Positions 4,424-52,451 of a stretch of DNA of 64,000 bases are shown in pieces. The notes under the pieces were generated by a model that made no database searches, was not told where the DNA came from, and saw only the letters and a program-made list of their open reading frames with translations. The translations under genes were made by a program, and so were the position numbers. Position 1 is the first letter of the stretch. Each line of letters begins with the position of its first letter. Where the stretch lies: positions 1-64,000 of the IMG/VR virus record IMGVR_UViG_3300035670_000111. One strand, given 5' to 3'. The stretch is from a virus.

Positions 4424-5340
4424 GGTTTAGTAGTGGCTGCCCTCCGTATCAGGGTCTCTGTGTCAGGTAGCTCTATACCGTAGGTGTCTAGTTGTTTTTC
4501 TTCATCATTTAAATCTTTATAATCTTTAATTGCTTTTAATGCGTGAACAACCCCGGACTTCTTGCCAGCTTGCCACCGGTAGTTATTGAAGTCAGAATAG
4601 CCGCCGCCGATCTTGCTGAAGGCAACTTTACGTCCAGCATGGATATCTTCATAAAAAGCTACAGCTTGATCTACAGCTAGTTGAAGTCTACGCTCTGCGT
4701 TGATTCTATAAGCCTCGTTTGATGCAGAAGCTTTGACGTCAGATAACGCTTGGGTGTATCTGTTGACCAGCTCCATGCCAGTTTCATAATCTTTTTGAAC
4801 TCGTTGTTCCCAAGCCCTTGAGTATGGGATAGATGGGGTTCTATCTGGTTCTACAGTCCAGGAATCAGAAATTAAATCATAGGCAGCATAAGGATTTATG
4901 TCTCGTATATCTGTTTGAGGATTTACGTAGTAAGTTAGTTCGTAGCCTTCCCAATTTTTGGTGTTAGGCATTAAAGAGTTGTAGAAACCCTCATTAAACA
5001 TCTTGGCAATTTCATCATCAGAAAGGCCAGCGTATTCCTGGTTGTATTGTCTAAATACTGGGTAGACAATGCCTACCAAACAATCTAAATCACCAGGATC
5101 TCTAGAAGCAGACCATTGATACGACACACCAGAACCTGCTAACCAAACTTTGGTCCACTTTTCAGGCATGCTGTATCGAACGCTTAGATGCTCGAATAAG
5201 ATCCTCTTTATTGCGTTTCTAACCCAAGGGCGTAGAGTTTTTCCTATAAAGATTCTCGGATCGAGCTCTGTCTCTGGTCTACTAAAGTACGAGGTGGAGC
5301 TTTGCTCCACGTTAACTTCAGAAAAACGATCCGTATCCAT
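4420..5340 (-). CDS. Pol-beta superfamily nucleotidyltransferase
   Basis: WLAGSG...GDLDCLV (hGS...DxD) and downstream YELTYYV strand. Confidence 0.75.
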   Translation of the reverse strand: MDTDRFSEVNVEQSSTSYFSRPETELDPRIFIGKTLRPWVRNAIKRILFEHLSVRYSMPEKWTKVWLAGSGVSYQWSASRDPGDLDCLVGIVYPVFRQYNQEYAGLSDDEIAKMFNEGFYNSLMPNTKNWEGYELTYYVNPQTDIRDINPYAAYDLISDSWTVEPDRTPSIPYSRAWEQRVQKDYETGMELVNRYTQALSDVKASASNEAYRINAERRLQLAVDQAVAFYEDIHAGRKVAFSKIGGGYSDFNNYRWQAGKKSGVVHALKAIKDYKDLNDEEKQLDTYGIELPDTETLIRRAATTKP

Positions 5341-5344
5341 AGGA

Positions 5345-5599
5345 CTATTCTTCAGCTTCTGCGGGTGTATGTCCTTGCTTATTCGCTGATGCTAGCTTTA
5401 AAAGGGTGTACTCCGCTGCAGTTTGGGCATGAATATCTGAAAGGATCTCTCCCATAAATCTACGAACTTCTCTCAAACTAGCGTCTCTTTCGACACTTAC
5501 TGAGAATATGTTCTTATCCATTTCTAGAAAAATCCCGCCATCTTTGCCAATTAAAACCGCAAATCCGGTAAGAAATTCTTTCTTTTGTTCCTCTGACAT
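5345..5599 (-). CDS. Hypothetical protein
   Basis: ORF with AGGAG RBS, tightly packed. Confidence 0.7.
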   Translation of the reverse strand: MSEEQKKEFLTGFAVLIGKDGGIFLEMDKNIFSVSVERDASLREVRRFMGEILSDIHAQTAAEYTLLKLASANKQGHTPAEAEE

Positions 5600-5607
5600 G
5601 TGTTCTC

Positions 5608-6189
5608 CTATTCATATGCGCCAGCTGCTTTACGCATCTGGGTTACAACGTGGGTTTTTACTGGACAAAAGTCGCACAAGTATACGTTTGTACTTGCAGA
5701 CTCTGCTGGCATTGGTAGCCCAGCTTCTTTTCTTTCCGCGTGAGTTTTAGGGATCAATCTCTTTTTAGAGTCTCTCCAATCTGAACAACCGGCTTGAGGC
5801 CGTAGATGTTCAGAATAACACTTCATTGCATCTTCATAGAAAGTTGCTTTTGTTGTGTAGTAATCTGGATCTATATCCGCTAAACCACCGCCAACTCTGG
5901 TTCTGATATTTTTAATAATCTCTTTTCTAAACTTCTCTTGTGACCAGAGCTTTACTCCAATCTTAGATAAGAAACCTGTGTGAGGTATGCCCGCGCTGTT
6001 GTGTTTTTCTATAGTTAATTCTAAAAATACATCGTCGTCTGGGTTACCCTCAAAGTCTGGAAGCTCTTCGATAGTCTTACAGTTGTAGCAATAAAGCAGA
6101 CGAATCTTTGGGCCCTCATCTCGGACCTCTACATACTCACCGCTTTGATCGGCAGGACCGCCGCTATTTCCTAAAATTGGGATGCTCAT
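5608..6189 (-). CDS. Hypothetical protein with CxxC motifs (probable Zn binding)
   Basis: CYNC, C..H....C, CDFC. Confidence 0.7.
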   Translation of the reverse strand: MSIPILGNSGGPADQSGEYVEVRDEGPKIRLLYCYNCKTIEELPDFEGNPDDDVFLELTIEKHNSAGIPHTGFLSKIGVKLWSQEKFRKEIIKNIRTRVGGGLADIDPDYYTTKATFYEDAMKCYSEHLRPQAGCSDWRDSKKRLIPKTHAERKEAGLPMPAESASTNVYLCDFCPVKTHVVTQMRKAAGAYE

Positions 6190-6225
6190 AAAACCCTCTC
6201 TACTAGAGAGGTTATCCTATCATGT

Positions 6226-6690
6226 CTAGTACTTGATACCCTTAGGTCTATATAGAGAAGTTGAGGCTGCTCGGTCCTCTTTACGCACTTTTTCTATAGC
6301 TTTTTTATCTTCAGGAATCTTATAAACTTTAAATTCACGGCCATTTACAGTTCTGATCTCATAGTCTGGGGATTTAGGGACCTTCTTAGTTGCTGCCTTC
6401 TTTTTAGCTGGCTTCTTAGGCTTTATTTCAGCCTCTGTAGCTGGCATAAACTGAAGATAATGCCTATTTAAATCTCTGGCCTCTTCACGAGTAATATGAC
6501 CTCCTTGAACAGCTTCAGCAACATGTCTGGCAGCCGGCATTCCAGAGGTAGGCTTTGCTTTAGTTCTCTTTGGATGCTTATAGCTAATTCTGGATCCTAC
6601 AGATACGTTCATATCTATGAGCTTATTTACTTCTTCCTGAGGAAGCCCTGTACCTCTAGCTCGTTCTCTAGGAACAAAAATTTTAGCCAT
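6226..6690 (-). CDS. Basic hypothetical protein
   Basis: K-rich ORF (KPKKPAKKKAATKK), RBS GGAG. Confidence 0.7.
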   Translation of the reverse strand: MAKIFVPRERARGTGLPQEEVNKLIDMNVSVGSRISYKHPKRTKAKPTSGMPAARHVAEAVQGGHITREEARDLNRHYLQFMPATEAEIKPKKPAKKKAATKKVPKSPDYEIRTVNGREFKVYKIPEDKKAIEKVRKEDRAASTSLYRPKGIKY

Positions 6691-7303
6691 TCTTTAAAGA
6701 CTCAAATTCTCCCTTTAATGCACGCATAGTTAAGCCCTCTGCTTCTTTTCTACGGCGCACGTCAGCGGCTACTTTGAATATTGGTTTACCGCCAGTATTG
6801 GGATTGCCGGACTTAGTTACCCATCGTCCTCCAGCTGTTTGATGCTTCTTTTTAGCTGCGCCCATGCTGTGTATGGATTCATCTCCAGCACGGTGAGCTT
6901 TAATAAACTTTTCTACATTTGGATCTGGGGTAGCTGAGGGAGCATCCACCTGCATTTTGTACAACTCGCTTACATCACGAGTCATAGGAGTAATCATTGG
7001 AGCGTCTAAACCTTTTTTCTCAGCCCTGCGCTTAACTTTACCAGCGCAGCTTTGGCACAAAGGCACAAAGGACACGGGCTCTACAGGAGAAGTTTCTGGA
7101 TTGCGGTTAGTTATACCGGCTAAGCGAGTAGCGTCAGAACCACAAGAAGGTCCCCAGCAAAGGTGTTCTCTACCTCGTCTTGGTCCGCCTTCTAGTACGC
7201 TTTTAGATCCTCCACCTTTGTTACCTTTTGTACCGCCTCTTTTACTCTTTACAAAAGGATTGGGAGTTTCTACCGAATAACCCTTATTCTCAGTATTGTC
7301 CAT
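6683..7303 (-). CDS. Basic hypothetical protein with Zn-finger-like CxxxxC/CxxC
   Basis: CWGPSC...CQSC; start taken at MDNTE. Confidence 0.65.
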   Translation of the reverse strand: MDNTENKGYSVETPNPFVKSKRGGTKGNKGGGSKSVLEGGPRRGREHLCWGPSCGSDATRLAGITNRNPETSPVEPVSFVPLCQSCAGKVKRRAEKKGLDAPMITPMTRDVSELYKMQVDAPSATPDPNVEKFIKAHRAGDESIHSMGAAKKKHQTAGGRWVTKSGNPNTGGKPIFKVAADVRRRKEAEGLTMRALKGEFESLKNG

Positions 7304-9133: not shown

Positions 9134-9294
9134 CGACGTGGCCCCATAGCAGCTTTAGCTTGCTTTGCGTACTCTTTATTTCTGCACTGTGGGCATAGTC
9201 CTGTAGATCCAGAGAATAGCTTTTCAACAGGAGTCATAAGGCCATCGCATCCTGGACAGAAATCGCTATTGTTGTAAAAAGTTGGGATGCTCAA
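9130..9294 (-). CDS. 54-aa Zn-finger-like protein
   Basis: TTG start overlapping trx stop; MSIPTFYNNSDFCPGCDGLMTPVEKLFSGSTGLCPQCRNK... Confidence 0.65.
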   Translation of the reverse strand: MSIPTFYNNSDFCPGCDGLMTPVEKLFSGSTGLCPQCRNKEYAKQAKAAMGPRR

Positions 9295-9572
9295 TTGAAC
9301 GCCTCCGCTAGAGCATCTTTTTGAGTCAAACCGTTTAGAGAAGTCAAGAAGTCGCCGTGCTTAAATACCATAAAAGTTGGGAAACTAGACACACCATTTA
9401 TCTCTAACGCGTCGGATTCTTCCGAGTTAATACGAATTACCAATATGTCTGGATTGTCTGATTCAAATTGATCCATTATAGGATTTTGTTGCTGGCAGTA
9501 AGGGCACCAGTCTGCGTAAAAATACCAAAGTTCTTTTCCTTTTAATGCCGGATTTATATACTCCATTACCAA
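9291..9572 (-). CDS. Thioredoxin-family protein
   Basis: FYADWCPYC active site, V..FPT cis-Pro loop. Confidence 0.9.
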   Translation of the reverse strand: MVMEYINPALKGKELWYFYADWCPYCQQQNPIMDQFESDNPDILVIRINSEESDALEINGVSSFPTFMVFKHGDFLTSLNGLTQKDALAEAFN

Positions 9573-29307: not shown

Positions 29308-32300
29308 TTACTCTCTGAAAACTACCCTGTCAACATGGAAGGTATGCCCCGGCTCTGGAGTGTCTACGTCAGCTGTTATACGAACCTCAGCATAAGATGC
29401 GCCAATTGTCTCTGCGTTAGTCGCAAAGGTCGCTATATATGCCCAGCGATCATTTCGGCGTAACTCAATAGTTGAGGTCTTAATTAGAATCAGAACATCA
29501 AACTCGTCATAGAAGTTTACTGTTATAGTGTAGTCTCCAAAAGCGTCCACGTTTTCTGGACGTATAGCTGCTGAAGCATAGTAACCTCTTTGGCTTTTAA
29601 CAGAAATATCACCTGAGGTTATACCAAAAGTAGAGCTTGCGGTTGCGTTTACCCTACAAAACGCAGTTCCGTGTGTGGAAGTTTCATCAAATAAGGTACC
29701 TCGAGGAATAGATCTTGTTAAGTTCGCTGATATTCCCGCCCAAGATCCTAAATCGTTTTCAAAAGACGCAGAGGGTATTAACGAATCTTCTAGCTCTGGG
29801 AATGAAAGAGTACTCTTACCTGGAACAATTGCCCAGGTACTTCCATTAGGCATGACTCTAGATAGAGTTGTGTATAGACGGGCGTATTTATCTGCGTATG
29901 TTGTCCAGTAAAGACTTTTTCCACCATTTCTACTCTCGTACTTCATAGCGTACATGTTTACAGAAGGGTTAAGTAGATTAGGTCTTGTAATGGTTTCTGG
30001 AGATGCTGGATCTGTAAACTTGCTAGGTATTCTTCCAAACTCAGCCTGTACTCCATCAAAATAAAACACAGCTGCTGCTCCATTACCTGTAGATAAAGAT
30101 ATGGATAGAGTAAACGACGTCTCTCCCGCAGGCAAAATTCTTTTAGTGTGTATTCTTGTCCATTCGTCTTTATTAGCTTCAGTTACTATGAAATTTCCTG
30201 CGGCCTGTCCTGTAGTGCTGATGGAGTAGGTTCCCGCCTTATTTCTTACATAGGCTGAAACTACTACATCTTCTCCACCTATTGCCGCATATGGCAAATA
30301 TACGGTAGTAGACACTTCTCCACCGCCAGCTTTACTTATCTTGCCCTGTTTATTTCCAAATAAAGCTGGAACTTCAGAAACAGAAGTAAGCGTAGATCCA
30401 GAACCTGCTGTCCAACCAGTTGTTGTTTCTAAAGAGGGAGTAGGTACGTAATTTAAAACACTCTTAGTTTCCCAACGGCAGTCTTCTATGTCAAAAAAAG
30501 TCTCTGTTATAGGAGATATAGGTGTAGGAGCACCGTCTCCGCAGAAAAATGCATCTAGTTCTGAGTTTTGTTGAAATAACGCAGAATCAAAATAAAAGGT
30601 GTCGTTTATGTCTGCAGTGTCTATATACACGGACACTTTTGCAATAGGTTTACCAGAATCTTGAGAGAACACTGGAGATATAGAGCTTACAGATATTCTT
30701 TGAGCAATTGAGTCTATTTCTGCAGGCGCAGAGTCTACGATATATGGTGTTTGAGCGTAGTATTGCCCGTCTTCATCTGAAAGGATTGTAGTCTGTTCAT
30801 CAATGCTTTGTGGCACAGAGTACTCAATTCTTGCAATAGCATTATGGGCAGACCCACTAACGTAAATACTAAATGTATAGCTTTTGCCTGGATCTACGGG
30901 GATCCAATCGGATACTAAAGCTACTCTGTCTTGATCAGTTGTAGCAGTAAGTTTAACTACGCAGTCTCCGTATACTACGGAAGTAGCTGGGGCATTAAAG
31001 TCTTGACTTATGGTTGAGTTAAGAGAATACCAACCACCCAATCCTCCTTCAAAAGTAGGGTTAGGTATTAGGTTTTCAGATTCTCCAGAAACAACTACCT
31101 GAACGAGTCTTGCGTCTTGATACTCTAAGCTGTATTGAGCCTCTGCAAATTGAAGCATATCTAGATAGAACTCTACTTGATTGTCTATAGGAGTTAGCAA
31201 TATATTTAAAGTTGCGTAAGCAGCATCTTCTGGAGCTATTTTTCCATTACGCCCAGCAACAGACCCCGAATTAAATTCTTGCCACGTAGTGCTAACCTGT
31301 AACGCAGAGCTGTATGTTTCAGAGGATATTAGCGTTCCAGACCCATCATGCCAGTTAATTCTTGCCTGTACTGAACCTACTTTGTTAGATACCGCACATC
31401 TTGTCCAACCAGTGAATAAATATCTTTTTCCTGGAGTTACAGGTATCCCATAAAGCACAGGATTGCTTTCACCTAAACTGAGGGTTTCTGGAGAGTTGTG
31501 ACCATGAGCTCTAGCAAATGCGTTTCCTCTAGGAGGAAATAAAAGATCGTACAGGCCTGGAGATGGGGCCGTTACCGCTACTCCTAGTTCTGATAAAGAG
31601 TTTGCAAAAGTGTGTCTATCAAAATCTCCAACGTCAGCTGTCCACCTACCAGTAGATTCTTCAAAAGAAGAATCGTTATAATCCAGCATCAAGTTGTGCC
31701 CAGTTACTACTTCGTTAGTCCAGTGAGTCAAAGCAGTTGTATAAGATTTTACTCCCGAAGGGGTTCCCTTTAAGCTATTAATAATGTTTCCAGAGCCGTA
31801 TAAAGCTCTGTGATATAGATCGCCAAGAGCAGGCTCATAGCTAAAACCAAGGTCTGTTATTTTATTTTTTAATATAGCAGATGGAAGATACTGATAGTTT
31901 GAGCTTTTATACAGAAGTTCAGCCTCTGTTCTAAACTTATCGTATTCAAATGCATAAGCTGATAGTGTGTTATACAGGTCGGAATCTTCTGGCTCACCGG
32001 TAGCATCTCCTGGTTCGTTAAGCCAAGATCTAGGAATCCACTTGCTTATCTTATTTAAAGTATCAGTTTGACTTATTAAGACAGCTCTAGCGCTTCCGCA
32101 ATTAATCCAACGAATTCCGTTAAAGATCCAAAAAGAATAGGTTACTTCTGACCCCTCACTTATGGTGTCAAAATCAATCTTAGACAGACGATAGTTAGTA
32201 ATAAGATCGCCGTCTACCAAAACACCGTCGTATGGGTTGTTAGGGGCACCTGCGTAGCTCTTAATCAATTTCCAATGAGTGGGGCGACCAACTGTTGCAG

Positions 32301-32676
32301 AGCCTACCGGATCTATTGTGGTCAGCGGGATATCTGCGTTTGACTTAGTATATGTAAAAGTAGTGGGTGAGAGGATAGAGCTAATTGTATAGTTTCCGTT
32401 TGTAGCCTCTAAAGTTCCGCTTATGTTTACTGGAAGGTTCTCAATAAAATTGTGAGCAGACGCAGTGGTTACGGTAACAACGTTATCTTCTAACACAATA
32501 GAAACAACCTGGGCAATAATGTAGTCAGCAGGGTCGCTGGTTACAGAACCCCAAACTATAGAAACTGTTTGATAGTCATAGGACCAGGCTCTTAAATTTA
32601 CGTTGTTATAGACACGGGTGTTTTCTATTTCACCGTATTTGGGTAAGCCGTATGGAGCAAACGAATACTTAGCCAT
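29308..32676 (-). CDS. Baseplate/tail protein (P2 gpI-like wedge segment plus about four CBM-like domains)
   Basis: KGTPSG wedge motif; repeated N.(I/V)P.P(T/S)FE..L.GW modules; N-terminal FCCH-like beta module. Confidence 0.75.
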   Translation of the reverse strand: MAKYSFAPYGLPKYGEIENTRVYNNVNLRAWSYDYQTVSIVWGSVTSDPADYIIAQVVSIVLEDNVVTVTTASAHNFIENLPVNISGTLEATNGNYTISSILSPTTFTYTKSNADIPLTTIDPVGSATVGRPTHWKLIKSYAGAPNNPYDGVLVDGDLITNYRLSKIDFDTISEGSEVTYSFWIFNGIRWINCGSARAVLISQTDTLNKISKWIPRSWLNEPGDATGEPEDSDLYNTLSAYAFEYDKFRTEAELLYKSSNYQYLPSAILKNKITDLGFSYEPALGDLYHRALYGSGNIINSLKGTPSGVKSYTTALTHWTNEVVTGHNLMLDYNDSSFEESTGRWTADVGDFDRHTFANSLSELGVAVTAPSPGLYDLLFPPRGNAFARAHGHNSPETLSLGESNPVLYGIPVTPGKRYLFTGWTRCAVSNKVGSVQARINWHDGSGTLISSETYSSALQVSTTWQEFNSGSVAGRNGKIAPEDAAYATLNILLTPIDNQVEFYLDMLQFAEAQYSLEYQDARLVQVVVSGESENLIPNPTFEGGLGGWYSLNSTISQDFNAPATSVVYGDCVVKLTATTDQDRVALVSDWIPVDPGKSYTFSIYVSGSAHNAIARIEYSVPQSIDEQTTILSDEDGQYYAQTPYIVDSAPAEIDSIAQRISVSSISPVFSQDSGKPIAKVSVYIDTADINDTFYFDSALFQQNSELDAFFCGDGAPTPISPITETFFDIEDCRWETKSVLNYVPTPSLETTTGWTAGSGSTLTSVSEVPALFGNKQGKISKAGGGEVSTTVYLPYAAIGGEDVVVSAYVRNKAGTYSISTTGQAAGNFIVTEANKDEWTRIHTKRILPAGETSFTLSISLSTGNGAAAVFYFDGVQAEFGRIPSKFTDPASPETITRPNLLNPSVNMYAMKYESRNGGKSLYWTTYADKYARLYTTLSRVMPNGSTWAIVPGKSTLSFPELEDSLIPSASFENDLGSWAGISANLTRSIPRGTLFDETSTHGTAFCRVNATASSTFGITSGDISVKSQRGYYASAAIRPENVDAFGDYTITVNFYDEFDVLILIKTSTIELRRNDRWAYIATFATNAETIGASYAEVRITADVDTPEPGHTFHVDRVVFRE

Positions 32677-48007: not shown

Positions 48008-48232
48008 TTACTCCTCTACTGGAAGGCTGTACTCATCGATTAGAGGGTCGTATGTTGCTCCAACTACTATGTTATGTGATTCGAGTGGCATTTTGTCTGA
48101 TACGTCTTTAATTACAGGTTCGCTTAAAAAGATAGCGCCAAGGCGTTCATCGGTATGTAGGATGTCTACAACCTGGTTATCAATGATAAAAGCAATCTTG
48201 ACTGGTGGTATTTCTTGAGTGTAATCAGCCAT
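48008..48232 (-). CDS. Small acidic protein, tail-fibre-chaperone-like
   Basis: AFIID..V.D...G.TYD pattern; lies downstream of a fibre gene. Confidence 0.55.
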   Translation of the reverse strand: MADYTQEIPPVKIAFIIDNQVVDILHTDERLGAIFLSEPVIKDVSDKMPLESHNIVVGATYDPLIDEYSLPVEE

Positions 48233-48467
48233 TTATTTCCTCCTTATAGATATTGGTTACTGCTTCCCACTTATGTAATGGGCAAGAGGCGTTAGGAAGC
48301 TTTGTCTTAAGCTTCATTATGCAGCCACACTCTTTGCATTGAGTGGTGGCCTTTATAAATCTATCGCAGGTCTGACAGATCTCTAGTCTTTTCTGGGCAA
48401 TATCGGTTTCTACTCGACCTATATTCTTATTGAATAGGTCCCAGGGACGGGCGGGTCTTTCGCTCAT
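48225..48467 (-). CDS. DUF6171-like Cys-rich small protein
   Basis: R..IC..C...C..CGC...K...CP..KW. Confidence 0.7.
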   Translation of the reverse strand: MSERPARPWDLFNKNIGRVETDIAQKRLEICQTCDRFIKATTQCKECGCIMKLKTKLPNASCPLHKWEAVTNIYKEEING

Positions 48468-48475
48468 TTATACTC

Positions 48476-50251
48476 CTATATTGTCGCCAAGAAATTGTCT
48501 ACGGTAGATCCTTGACTTCCTGTGGAAGGCGCCTTAATTATACCCACAGAAGTTCCCTTGGTGGGGGAAGTTGGGGTATGGCTTAGATCAGCCCCAAGTT
48601 GCGATCCGCCAAGGTTTGATCCAGAATAGGCCTTTGCCGTTATTACGTTACCTACAGTAGTTACGTATACAGAGCCGACTGTAGTAAAGCCAGAGTTATT
48701 GCTAGATATCTGTAAAGAAGCGGCCTCGCTTACTACTTCAGACACAGAGCTGGCTATTACTAGGGACGATACATAGGTAGTTACGCTCCTAGTGCCGGTG
48801 TAGCAAGAATAAGTTGTGACGCTTCTAGTGCTGGTGTAGCAAGAATAATTAGTGGTGTACGCGGTATAGCAAGAGTAATTTGTGGGCTGGTTTACTTGCT
48901 GTGTATAGCAAGAGTAGACTGTTCTATTTCTAGTCGAAGTATAACAAGAATAACTTACCGGATTAGTTACGGTACGTGTAGAGGTATAGCAAGAATAGGT
49001 AGTAGGGGTTGTAGTAGTACTATTACTGGTGTAGCAAGAATAAGTGGTTGGCGTAGCTGGGTTATAGCAAGAGTAGCTAGATAGCTCTTGTCCAGGGCTG
49101 CAATAGTAACAAGCAGTATAGGTGTTAATACACTCTCCGGAAATACCTTGACAGCAGTCATATCCAGCTATGCGCTGCTCATAGGTTTTAGTAATTGATG
49201 TTGCCGAATTTGAATAAGATCTAGCAGATCCTGGATTAGTAGTGACGCCAGAACAGCAGCTTCCTGATGGAGGGTTACTAGTACTTGTTACTTGACCTTG
49301 ATTGCAGACTGTGGTGGTTCCACCTCCAGAACTAGTGACGCCAGAACAACAGCTTCCTGAGGGAGGGTTACTAGAACCACTAACCTGTCCTTGATCGCAG
49401 ACTGTAGAGGTTCCACCACCGCTTGTTATAACGCCGGAGCAGCAGTTAGTTCCAGAACAGCTTGAGTTTGAGCACCCAGTTAGGCCCTGATCGCAAACAC
49501 TAACAGTTCCACTAGAAACTCCTGAGCAGCAGCTTCCAGAGGGCGGATTACTATAAGAATCTACGTATCCTCCGGTACATGCAGTTCCACCTCCGGAAGT
49601 AGTTACTCCAGAACAGCAGCTTCCAGAAGGAGGGTTGTTTGTGTTGGTGACCTGACTTTGGTTACAGGTTTGAGAGCTAGTTATGTCAGAGCAGCAATTT
49701 CCAGCAGGAGGACTATAGGTGTTAGTTGCCTGACTCTGATCGCATACTGAAGTGCTTCCAGTAGTTACTCCAGAACAGCAATTGCCAGCAGGAGGGTTTG
49801 AGGTATTGGTAACTTGACTCTGATCACAAAAAGTTTGAGTGCTTGAAGTATACCTAGGATAAGCAGCCCACCAAGATCCAGCGGAGCTTATCCAGAAAGA
49901 AACGCCAGTTCCACCAGTGGTATCTGTTTGTATCTTTACATCAGTATTTCCAAGGTTAGCCGAAGCTATTGGATATGTGCTAGCCGCATCATCTGCAATA
50001 GCTGTGTTAGAACCACTGATACGCCAGTTTCCGCGTAGAGCTGTCCACACCTGACCTGAGTCAGCTGTTCCTAATCCATTTACAGTAGAAGTTCTATTAA
50101 ACGCATCTTGTATTTTGGATGCAAACCATTGTTTCCATTGTCCACCCACTTTTACGAAGGCGCCAGTAGCGGTTTTCCATTGACCGCTTACTTTTACAGA
50201 AAGACCGCTAGCAGTCCTCCAGACGCCTCCTACTTTGGATGAACCCGGCAT
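48476..50251 (-). CDS. Cys-rich fibre/adhesin: beta-sandwich interrupted by a nested Cys-repeat stalk
   Basis: N-terminal VKV.GQW repeats (fibre attachment type), DAFNR...DNF domain ends, 36 Cys all within the insert. Confidence 0.7.
   Translation of the reverse strand: MPGSSKVGGVWRTASGLSVKVSGQWKTATGAFVKVGGQWKQWFASKIQDAFNRTSTVNGLGTADSGQVWTALRGNWRISGSNTAIADDAASTYPIASANLGNTDVKIQTDTTGGTGVSFWISSAGSWWAAYPRYTSSTQTFCDQSQVTNTSNPPAGNCCSGVTTGSTSVCDQSQATNTYSPPAGNCCSDITSSQTCNQSQVTNTNNPPSGSCCSGVTTSGGGTACTGGYVDSYSNPPSGSCCSGVSSGTVSVCDQGLTGCSNSSCSGTNCCSGVITSGGGTSTVCDQGQVSGSSNPPSGSCCSGVTSSGGGTTTVCNQGQVTSTSNPPSGSCCSGVTTNPGSARSYSNSATSITKTYEQRIAGYDCCQGISGECINTYTACYYCSPGQELSSYSCYNPATPTTYSCYTSNSTTTTPTTYSCYTSTRTVTNPVSYSCYTSTRNRTVYSCYTQQVNQPTNYSCYTAYTTNYSCYTSTRSVTTYSCYTGTRSVTTYVSSLVIASSVSEVVSEAASLQISSNNSGFTTVGSVYVTTVGNVITAKAYSGSNLGGSQLGADLSHTPTSPTKGTSVGIIKAPSTGSQGSTVDNFLATI
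48803..49828 (-). repeat. Seven C-x15-CC repeats, a 6-Cys tip, then seven YSCYT repeats (coding)
   Basis: Counted directly from the translation. Confidence 0.9.
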
Positions 50252-51052: not shown

Positions 51053-51394
51053 CTATGCTACCTCAGAACCAAATGCCTGGAATGTAAGGTTTGCTGTAGA
51101 TGCGACAACAGTGATCGTATCTGAAGCAGACAGGGTAACTCCAAGGGTAAAGGTGGTAGTAGTGTTAGCCGGGATAGCGGCATCGTAAGCAAGATACTGC
51201 TTGTTATCCAGGGCAGCGTTATCCTCACGGATAGCTATACGGTAGGTTGCTGCGGAGGTTCCGCGATTACAAACTACGATGGTAGATACCACAGCAGCGC
51301 TTCCCGCAGTAGAGGAGACAGCATACAGTTGGCTTCCTCCAGATACGTTGGCTGCTGGGGCAACCTGACCTAAAATTTTATAAGTCGTCGCCAA
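51053..51394 (-). CDS. Virion structural protein
   Basis: TYKILGQ..P...LY....V.STI.VCN...FGSE pattern. Confidence 0.65.
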   Translation of the reverse strand: MATTYKILGQVAPAANVSGGSQLYAVSSTAGSAAVVSTIVVCNRGTSAATYRIAIREDNAALDNKQYLAYDAAIPANTTTTFTLGVTLSASDTITVVASTANLTFQAFGSEVA

Positions 51395-52451
51395 GAGATT
51401 GCTCCTTCGAGTAGAAAGCTAGATTCGCTGTAAGGCGCGGATCATTTGGGTTCAATTCTACGGCTTTAGTCCCGTATTGAACTGCCTTATCTGACAAACC
51501 TAGGCGATACGCCGCAATTGCTGCATAATCCCAGGGATCTGATCCCCAGGCAAAGTCTTCGCATAAATACTCTAGGGGCTTTTCCGTTATTTCTAATGCG
51601 TTTTCTGCCGCATCTAGGCAGTCAAACCAGCGGTTGTTTTCATAGTAAAGCTTGGCTAGCTCTACATACCCCTCTCTACGATCAGGAGCTTCTTCTACTG
51701 CTTTTTTTAACCAGTCTTCTCTTTCAACAAAGTCTTCCATCATTTTGGATATATACCTCATAGACGCCGCTCGTTCGGGTTTCCATACCGCTTTTGGTAA
51801 GGAAAGATGTCTCTTAAATTCCTCCACTGCTTCTGCAAAACGCCCATAAAAGTATAGTTCTCTAGCGTGATAGAAGGCGTTTCTATCGTCGTAGGGATCT
51901 TCTTTTACCGACTGAGCTAGCAAAGGAAAGTATTGAGACCTAGGCTTTGTGTTATCTGCGTGATGGTGGATTTCTAAACCTATCCAGCTTTGGACCTCAT
52001 CTATGCGGTCAGAGACCAATACTTCGTGTACAGGGTGCTTCCACCTATAGCCATGTCTACGGTGGATCTTATCTCCACCGTATTGCAGGCCTGGACTTCC
52101 ATCTATATTCCAATTCCATGTATATTGGTATCTAGGGCGAGTAACGTATTTATCGATAGATTCTAAATGCGCTCGCCACCCAGGAACTAGTACCTCATCC
52201 ATATCAAGAGCAATACATAGATCTATATCATCAGGCAATACAGCAAGCGCAGCATTACGGGCGTCATCAAAACGCCAAGGTTTTACTGAAATTGATACCA
52301 CATTTATACCAAGTTTCTTAGCTGCTTTAACTGTGGAGTCGGAAGATCCGGTATCAGCTATGAGAAGATAATCAGCTTCTTTTGCTGACTCATACCAGGG
52401 CTTTACAAACTGTTGCTCGTTTAACGCGATAGTGTAGATCGCTATCTTCAT
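51378..52451 (-). CDS. GT2 glycosyltransferase with TPR repeats
   Basis: I..NE, DTGS.D.T, F..ARN, LDMDE (DxD), VHE; C-terminal TPRs. Confidence 0.9.
   Translation of the reverse strand: MKIAIYTIALNEQQFVKPWYESAKEADYLLIADTGSSDSTVKAAKKLGINVVSISVKPWRFDDARNAALAVLPDDIDLCIALDMDEVLVPGWRAHLESIDKYVTRPRYQYTWNWNIDGSPGLQYGGDKIHRRHGYRWKHPVHEVLVSDRIDEVQSWIGLEIHHHADNTKPRSQYFPLLAQSVKEDPYDDRNAFYHARELYFYGRFAEAVEEFKRHLSLPKAVWKPERAASMRYISKMMEDFVEREDWLKKAVEEAPDRREGYVELAKLYYENNRWFDCLDAAENALEITEKPLEYLCEDFAWGSDPWDYAAIAAYRLGLSDKAVQYGTKAVELNPNDPRLTANLAFYSKEQSLGDDL

Follow-up and report, generated by a model that had tools for sequence, protein, structure and literature searches.

Bovine antibodies with an ultralong third heavy-chain complementarity-determining region (CDR H3) carry, on an immunoglobulin scaffold, an insert of 50-70 residues that has a β-ribbon stalk and disulfides only in the knob (PMC8602281). 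By analogy, and not by homology, this is the closest functional counterpart of P0001, the 591-residue product of a minus-strand open reading frame (ORF) at 48476-50251 of a 64,000-nucleotide stretch of viral DNA (the window; positions 1 to 64,000 of the IMG/VR record IMGVR_UViG_3300035670_000111). As in the bovine antibodies, a β-sandwich in P0001 would send out a two-stranded ribbon from the two ends of an insert, and the ribbon would bear a small, exchangeable, disulfide-rich knob. The insert of P0001 is 342 residues long, however, its stalk would be a modular series of seven four-cysteine nodes with lateral loops, and its scaffold is predicted to be concanavalin A (ConA)-like rather than immunoglobulin-like. 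The source of diversity would differ as well, with exchange of genes or cassettes in the P0001 family and V(D)J recombination and hypermutation in bovine CDR H3. With a probability that we put at about 75%, P0001 is a virion appendage protein with a lectin head, a nested hairpin stalk built of cysteine (Cys) nodes and a tip, likely acting as an adhesin or receptor-binding protein (RBP).

Antiparallel strands pinned by serial cross-strand disulfides are found in theta-defensins and granulins, and vicinal CC pairs can bond in two directions. Cystine-ladder peptides and disulfide-laddered stacks are 18-60 residues in length and are cyclic or compact. A series of cross-strand disulfides is what they would have in common with the P0001 stalk. 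We know of no counterpart to alternating half-nodes of three Cys and one Cys with a lateral x15 loop. Many disulfides in externally exposed proteins that are assembled in the cytoplasm, as proposed for P0001, occur in Agrobacterium phage Milano (PMC10811340) and in Mycobacterium phage Jabs, the virion of which is reported to hold ~1,700 disulfide bonds (doi 10.64898/2026.07.24.740622). The disulfides of Milano and Jabs cross-link capsid, sheath and tail subunits, whereas those of P0001 would be intramolecular, in the laddered hairpin of a single adhesin. Literature searches on cystine ladders in bacteriophages, on DUF6171 (a domain encoded beside P0001) and on Cys-rich fibres of freshwater actinophages returned nothing relevant, and we found no published description of the hairpin-stalk build for a probable host-recognition protein. 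Tentaclins are unrelated.

A reading of the sequence alone had described P0001 as a Cys-free domain split by an insert with mirror-symmetric repeats, and that observation is confirmed. A script places every one of the 36 Cys within residues 142-483, that is, within the insert. The outgoing arm (residues 142-333, at 49253..49828 and, like all parts of the gene, on the minus strand) comprises seven C1-x15-C2C3 modules with their first Cys at 142, 170, 196, 225, 253, 285 and 316, the fifth of which is x16 with two extra Cys (C260 and C265). The return arm (residues 398-485; 48797..49060) has seven YSCYT nodes with Cys at 406, 421, 436, 448, 461, 471 and 483. Between them lies the tip or knob (residues 334-397; 49061..49252), with Cys at 366, 367, 374, 381, 384 and 395. 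The previous count of a six-Cys tip followed by seven YSCYT modules balances, although there are in fact eight Y-S-C-Y modules, given that the first (YSCYN, C395) had been counted as the sixth Cys of the tip. This partition is consistent with parity, because seven nodes of four Cys, two loop Cys and six tip Cys make 36. The stalk thus holds 30 of the 36, and the module counts fit the proposal that each node takes three Cys from the outgoing strand and one from the returning strand.

The repeats are also recognizable in the DNA, with families D1 and D2 in the outgoing arm and eight copies of family D3 in the return arm, the copy in the tip included. The copies are only 60-81% identical, which argues for a long-standing, conserved Cys pattern and against recent duplication or low-complexity noise. 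Inverted DNA repeats were rejected as the source of the symmetry, since the two arms carry different motifs. The insert lacks His, Met, Phe and Trp and consists to 84% of S, T, G, N, Q, C, P and Y; with so little hydrophobic core, it must depend on covalent and hydrogen bonds.

The six outgoing linkers are 10, 8, 11, 10, 13 and 13 residues long, and the gaps between return Cys are 14, 14, 11, 12, 9 and 11: exactly the outgoing series read backwards, with one residue added to each. The six return gaps can be arranged in 180 distinct orders, and a constant offset results from only one of them. The three GGG linkers of P0001 stand opposite the three return gaps that contain Pro. Across the family, 115 distinct linker pairs are concordant in pairing a GG linker with a Pro gap (70 + 45) and 18 are discordant, although this concordance largely restates the matching of short, medium and long rung types, i.e. 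the length signal.

A protein search gathered 106 relatives of P0001, all metagenomic, and in IMG/VR a scan turned up 123 loci that encode such proteins, the sequence of 80 of which was retrieved. The homolog survey proposed in the sequence-only reading bore out its expectation of equal outward and return repeat counts: the arms stay matched in ~100 homologs that differ in the number and length of rungs. Over distinct architectures, the mirror (+1) rule is obeyed at 44 of 57 positions, compared with 14/57 when the arms are compared in the same order and 13/38 when they are slid by one rung, and none of 5000 within-protein shuffles reaches 44/57. Most exceptions arise where the parser ran on into the tip, or come from one homolog, P0003. 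Matched architectures, given as outgoing/return lengths, include (10,11,13,13,13)/(11,12,14,14,14), (10,11,13,13)/(11,12,14,14), (10,8,11,12)/(11,9,12,13), (10,9,13,14,13,13)/(11,10,14,14,14,14), (10,12)/(11,13), (11x5)/(12x4), (13)/(14) and (12)/(13). A +1 partner exists for each of six classes of linker length (8 to 13). Sequences newly found on viral contigs follow the rule as well. One could suppose that the mirrored spacings are a coincidence or a by-product of a low-complexity Ser/Thr/Cys sequence, with the arms unpaired, given that the composition is biased to the 84% noted above and that the repeats are so alike as to make alignments ambiguous. This supposition deserves almost no credence. 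It is effectively refuted by the covariation of all six length classes with their partners, by the survival of the rule through changes in rung number, order and polarity, by the 0/5000 shuffles and by the perfect parity of the Cys.

The change in polarity is seen in P0029, P0031, P0041 and L030, the last of which (L030:3290-5324) has 64 Cys in its insert. In this single related group the arms have traded module types, the single-Cys form being outgoing and the CC type returning, and the +1 is kept (12/13). This suggests that the node is a local unit that can work in either polarity.

P0003 is the sole homolog with unequal repeat counts, and it was rejected as a refuting case. It is 100% identical to L003 (1417-3216) outside of an exact deletion of 54 residues (162 nt) that removes two outgoing modules and lies between repeat copies with a near-exact 28-nt core. 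At zero divergence, it is to be read as a very recent deletion (possibly a segregating one-arm variant) or an assembly collapse, rather than a diverged lineage with unequal arms. Contigs assembled from four public runs break up across the repeat region, and no paired indels were seen among close variants in these contigs, which fragment at the repeats.

The lateral loops behave differently from the linkers. The loop from C1 to CC varies from 12 to 23 residues with zero or two inner Cys, and the flanking linkers stay in register at 181 nodes and not at 18. Because the loops vary while the linkers stay matched, the loops would be free lateral excursions and the linkers would be constrained, paired strands. 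Excision of the loops, so that C1 is set beside C2, leaves 79 residues in the outgoing arm against 78 in the return arm, which explains the +1 offset.

The Cys-free domain that the insert splits is real, and is predicted to be a ConA-like jelly roll of the lectin/carbohydrate-binding module (CBM) type. An AlphaFold2 (AF2) model of full-length P0001 was made from a 50-sequence alignment, and strands were assigned by DSSP. The N-terminal half of the jelly roll (residues 48-141; 49829..50110) has pLDDT >90, and the C-terminal half (residues 486-591; 48479..48796) has pLDDT 92-98. Alignment of the modelled scaffold by VIA-align gives Z 17.5 with CBM66 4b1m_A (rmsd, root-mean-square deviation, 2.4 Å; 153 of 165 residues aligned), Z 14.9 with the C-terminal receptor-binding domain of TM4 gp23 (9n6a), Z 14.6 with the Douge baseplate protein 8zdo_a, Z 12.5 with CBM2 of the phage J-1 Dit (5ly8) and Z 10.6 with the Pan3 tailspike, as well as dozens of matches to lectins, GH16 proteins and GH43-CBM proteins at Z 10-16. 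The model therefore assigns the scaffold to the ConA-like lectin/glucanase (CBM66-like) fold, a fold of sugar-binding type. The likeness to solved receptor-binding domains of phages is supportive only, given that many non-phage lectins have the same fold.

ConA-like lectins and CBMs and the heads of actinophage RBPs thus share with P0001 the Cys-free scaffold fold (~residues 45-141 and 485-591), and P0001 likewise belongs to a virion structural module. None of 4b1m, 9n6a, 8zdo_a and 5ly8, however, has a 342-residue Cys-laddered hairpin between two strands, and P0001 has no sequence-family match: no Pfam family was found in it at E<=0.01, and a phmmer search of the PDB by sequence gave only one chance-level match. 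Foldseek with the full model returned nothing from the PDB at E<=0.001; its weak rows are elongated β-hairpin proteins. A structure search of BFVD returned only uncharacterised proteins of uncultured phages, and a search of the ESM Atlas with the insert gave no usable match.

Ahead of the jelly roll is a short N-terminal β-meander (residues 1-47; 50111..50251) with three ~12-residue repeats of (V)K/RVxGxWK type and seven short strands by DSSP at pLDDT 57-71. It matches phrog_36019 and phrog_25859 weakly, both of unknown function, and it is variable or missing in some homologs. This segment is probably an anchor or shaft.

The full-length model has a mean pLDDT of 73 and a pTM of 0.50, with pLDDT >90 in the scaffold, 70-80 in the stalk and <50 in the tip. 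The long strands of the stalk pair as the mirror rule predicts (163-177/468-503, 246-260/432-453, 281-292/418-429 and 311-323/404-415), and the two stretches of low confidence, 178-223 and 454-467, likewise mirror each other. A model of the insert alone, from a nine-sequence alignment, has a mean pLDDT of 33 and is unusable. That ascending and descending strands pair as a β-ribbon is indicated indirectly, by the covariation of arm lengths and the mirrored DSSP strands. Four observations support the antiparallel, nested hairpin of the earlier proposal, with A_i paired to B_n+1-i: the covariation of lengths across many architectures, loops that vary freely, these mirrored segments and a compensated loss of Cys.

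This loss bears on the chemistry of the nodes, for which the sequence-only reading had offered two disulfides or a Cys4 metal site; the former is favoured. In the clade of P0024, P0025, P0026, L009 and L016, the CC doublet of node 2 reads CA or CS, so that C3 is lost, and its partner module on the return arm has gone from YSCY to YYAY, with linkers that are still 10/11 and 12/13. The joint loss of C3 and the return Cys, with C1 and C2 kept, suggests a C3-return disulfide and a separate disulfide that closes the loop, rather than a tetrahedral Cys4 site. Every one of the 103 unique homologs has an even count of insert Cys (range 6-64), and 41 of these counts are not multiples of four. Where a whole protein has an odd total, the cause is a single Cys in the scaffold or a spurious start codon placed upstream. 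If instead the same hairpin held a Cys4 zinc or iron site at each node, with three outgoing Cys and one returning, the finding of exactly four Cys per node would be explained, as would the synthesis of the protein in a reducing cytoplasm, and the conserved neighbour DUF6171 does have a zinc-ribbon-like Cys pattern. Metal ions are known along the fibre axes of T4 gp12 and gp37. Such sites are nevertheless improbable in P0001. Zinc-type Cys4 sites keep four ligands together, usually in CxxC knuckles, and the C-x15-CC plus C nodes have no such knuckles; a vicinal CC rarely co-ligates a single metal; the insert is without His; and the clade above dropped exactly two of the four Cys. The even totals that are often not multiples of four count against metal sites too, although they bear only on tips and loops. 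The nodes would thus hold disulfides rather than metal.

Elsewhere in the window, at 9291-9572 on the minus strand, is the gene for a 93-residue thioredoxin-fold protein with the active-site motif WCPYC, in which a dipeptide of glutaredoxin type stands in surroundings like those of thioredoxin. The protein could be a redox partner of the 36-Cys virion protein, or may simply be a reductant for ribonucleotide reductase. No match to glutaredoxin PF00462 was found in the phage genome, and the lack of a match to sulfhydryl oxidase PF04777 there is uninformative, as control genomes were silent too.

The architecture that we propose can be described from the N-terminus. The short β-repeat segment would be followed by the ConA-like β-sandwich, two neighbouring strands of which would run outward as the 342-residue insert. 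The insert would form a single nested antiparallel hairpin with node pairing A1-B8, A2-B7 and so on to A7-B2, where B1 is the YSCY module of the tip, and each of the seven nodes would be made of an outgoing C1-x15-C2C3 and the single Cys of a return YSCY module. The x15 segment would loop out sideways, with its closure inside the outgoing arm and most simply through a C1-C2 disulfide, and C3 would make the cross-arm disulfide, with predicted bonds 159-483, 187-471, 213-461, 242-448, 271-436, 302-421 and 333-406. The stalk, up to ~25 nm if fully extended, would present the ~60-residue tip with its six Cys. With stalk length and tip exchanged between phages and the scaffold conserved, the insert would set both reach and specificity, and a receptor-binding role for P0001 is probable. 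The sequence pattern, the covariation, the Cys parity, the scaffold fold (on the AF2 model) and the synteny are established by the analysis, whereas the disulfide connectivity, the extended shape and the receptor binding are inferred.

The source phage is an uncultured aquatic myovirus with a genome of ~90-100 kb. The record is an 88-kb virus genome that is ~90% complete and has genes for sheath, tube, baseplate hub and Baseplate_J proteins, and its sheath is closest (35%) to that of the Streptomyces phage BRock group, which are actinobacterial myoviruses. The P0001 gene (48476..50251, 591 codons plus the stop; 106 homologs, with synteny kept in 80 viral loci) is part of the virion structural module. 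It belongs to a group of fibre-like genes, with the neck, sheath, tube and baseplate genes downstream of that group. Its neighbours include an Mtd_N/collagen fibre and proteins with tail-fibre-like PHROG matches, and this synteny is kept in related loci.

Several points weigh against an extended, disulfide-bonded adhesin. The P0001 gene is flanked by head genes on one side and by neck and sheath genes on the other, and is not beside the baseplate genes; the corresponding interval in BRock holds head-completion genes. A more canonical tail-fibre candidate of this phage is a 1122-residue protein with a CBM_4_9 domain, encoded directly after the Baseplate_J gene (29308-32676, minus strand), which would imply at least two carbohydrate-binding types of appendage. 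The register of the arms is drawn from covariation in the sequences together with the patterns of DSSP strands and pLDDT, with a confidence in the stalk that is only moderate and a tip that is unmodelled. The compensated loss of Cys is one evolutionary event only. P0001, which lacks a signal peptide, has to be made in a reducing cytoplasm and yet would have to acquire up to 18 disulfides. Finally, a monomeric two-stranded ribbon ~25 nm long may not be straight.

The arms could pair and yet coil or pack into a compact or trimer-bundled Cys-rich domain, in which case P0001 would be a decoration or whisker of the head or neck and the lectin would do the binding. This is unlikely, though it is the most substantial of the alternatives. 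It would account for a gene between head-proximal and neck or sheath genes, an interval that in BRock contains head-completion and neck genes, and for a canonical fibre candidate after the baseplate genes; the pTM is only 0.50, and ConA-like domains bind carbohydrate by themselves. In the AF2 model, however, strands run unbroken for up to 36 residues along the arms, the weak Foldseek rows contain hairpin proteins of elongated shape, and the insert has almost no hydrophobic residues from which to make a compact core. The insert is also swapped far faster than the scaffold, as expected of a specificity determinant. An extended stalk with an exchangeable tip therefore remains the preferred reading.

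The rate of exchange is evident from homologs with N-terminal scaffolds 80-88% identical to that of P0001, in which the inserts are only ~25% identical and contain 36-64 Cys; at that level of identity the architectures are effectively unrelated. The tip core of P0001 reappears in homologs with other stalks, and recognisable tip subdomains are shared among unlike stalks, one of them reversed. Because the distal part of a nested hairpin is a contiguous DNA cassette, one exchange could reset both reach and specificity. The paired insertions at two distant sites that a change of stalk length was expected to require may in consequence not be needed, if the distal hairpin, contiguous in the gene, is moved as a whole, an idea that has only partial support. 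An ungapped breakpoint walk for nested cassette exchange recovered only the length rule and gave no independent information.

The family is large, with more than 100 protein clusters from the protein search and 123 viral loci from the IMG/VR scan, and is entirely unannotated. One short relative, P0050, has 374 residues and 16 Cys. An exhaustive phmmer search of 1.84 billion representatives with the insert alone found six clusters, all of the same family, and no sign of stalk modules on other scaffolds, although the bias filters of HMMER could hide others. A tblastn search of cultured and GenBank phages with P0001 found no match, although records close to the genome of the window may have been missing from that set. 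Other modules in the family are YxCPSGGxLxGxxC hairpins and single-Cys ladders with a spacing of 9-11 residues. The distant members P0073, P0092, P0096 and P0091 have arrays of the YxCPSGGxLxGxxC hairpin with Tyr/Ser-rich (SYSYSY) spacers. The name TraN, given by JGI to the distant matches P0091 and P0097, was considered for P0001 and rejected; it belongs to members with the YxCPSGGxLxGxxC repeat, and P0001 lacks a Pfam match.

Some fibres of the family depart from the split arrangement. At L019-L023 (fibre ORF ~5000-7067), Cys-rich domains (44 Cys), set apart from one another by long poly-proline runs, come C-terminal to an unsplit lectin scaffold. The fibre ORFs of L038, L040 and L041 (369-377 residues) have no Cys between or around the scaffold halves, which means that the lectin head can carry a Cys-free insert. 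At L063-L065, one locus encodes two small, tandem, paralogous fibres of 302 and 312 residues, with six and eight Cys.

Immediately downstream of P0001 are two small genes, also on the minus strand. The first (48225..48467) starts 8 nt after the P0001 stop and encodes a basic DUF6171 protein of 80 residues (Pfam PF19668, E 4e-7). Its Cys pattern, C-x2-C-x9-C-x2-C-x-C-x12-C, has all six Cys invariant in 46 unique sequences. The DUF6171 gene adjoins the fibre in 50 of the 73 loci that have room for it and is elsewhere in the locus in 15, and in P0023 (668 residues) PF19668 is fused to the C-terminus of the fibre. DUF6171 is absent nearby for some Cys-poor fibres (L028, L039, L063-L066 and L070), and the locus of the Cys-free fibre L038 contains no DUF6171 gene. 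The second gene (48008..48232), found together with DUF6171 in most loci, encodes a strongly acidic, Cys-free protein of 74 residues with a median net charge of ~-9 over 53 sequences, possibly a fibre chaperone. Tentatively, and with less confidence than the architecture itself, the whole system may be viewed as a display stalk of programmable length that works in either polarity, in which distal rungs and tip form one exchangeable cassette and DUF6171 and its acidic partner serve as dedicated assembly or oxidative-folding factors, or as a structural cap, for such fibres, which would be the first function assigned to DUF6171.

If the proposed architecture is correct, phages of abundant aquatic bacteria would use not only trimeric fibres but also monomer-encoded, disulfide-laddered hairpin adhesins of adjustable length. 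On the tentative reading above, half-nodes, one with three Cys and a loop and the other a single-Cys YSCY module, would zip an out-and-back chain rung by rung, a principle of protein architecture that would be previously undescribed. Exchangeable knobs on a lectin head would provide a model for the tuning of host range through reach and tip, and the family would be a model for the folding of a protein with up to 64 Cys, synthesised in the cytoplasm, for extracellular life. It would likewise offer a model for what DUF6171 does. The stalk could also serve as a natural scaffold for the display of small disulfide-rich binders at a set distance, like the bovine ultralong CDR H3 but modular.

DNA of the phage is present in subsurface, marine and freshwater metagenomes, with no RNA data set among those listed. 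One relative was found in a collection of cellular genomes, on a 12-kb contig in the bin of a Bacteroidetes metagenome-assembled genome, which is too weak a link to name a host. At 51378-52451 on the minus strand is the gene for a GT2 glycosyltransferase fused to tetratricopeptide (TPR) repeats (phrog_13126, E 9e-117), which in related loci also lies upstream of the fibre. Given that 37% of the fibre insert is Ser and Thr and that the GT2-TPR gene is conserved nearby, glycosylation of the virion is conceivable.

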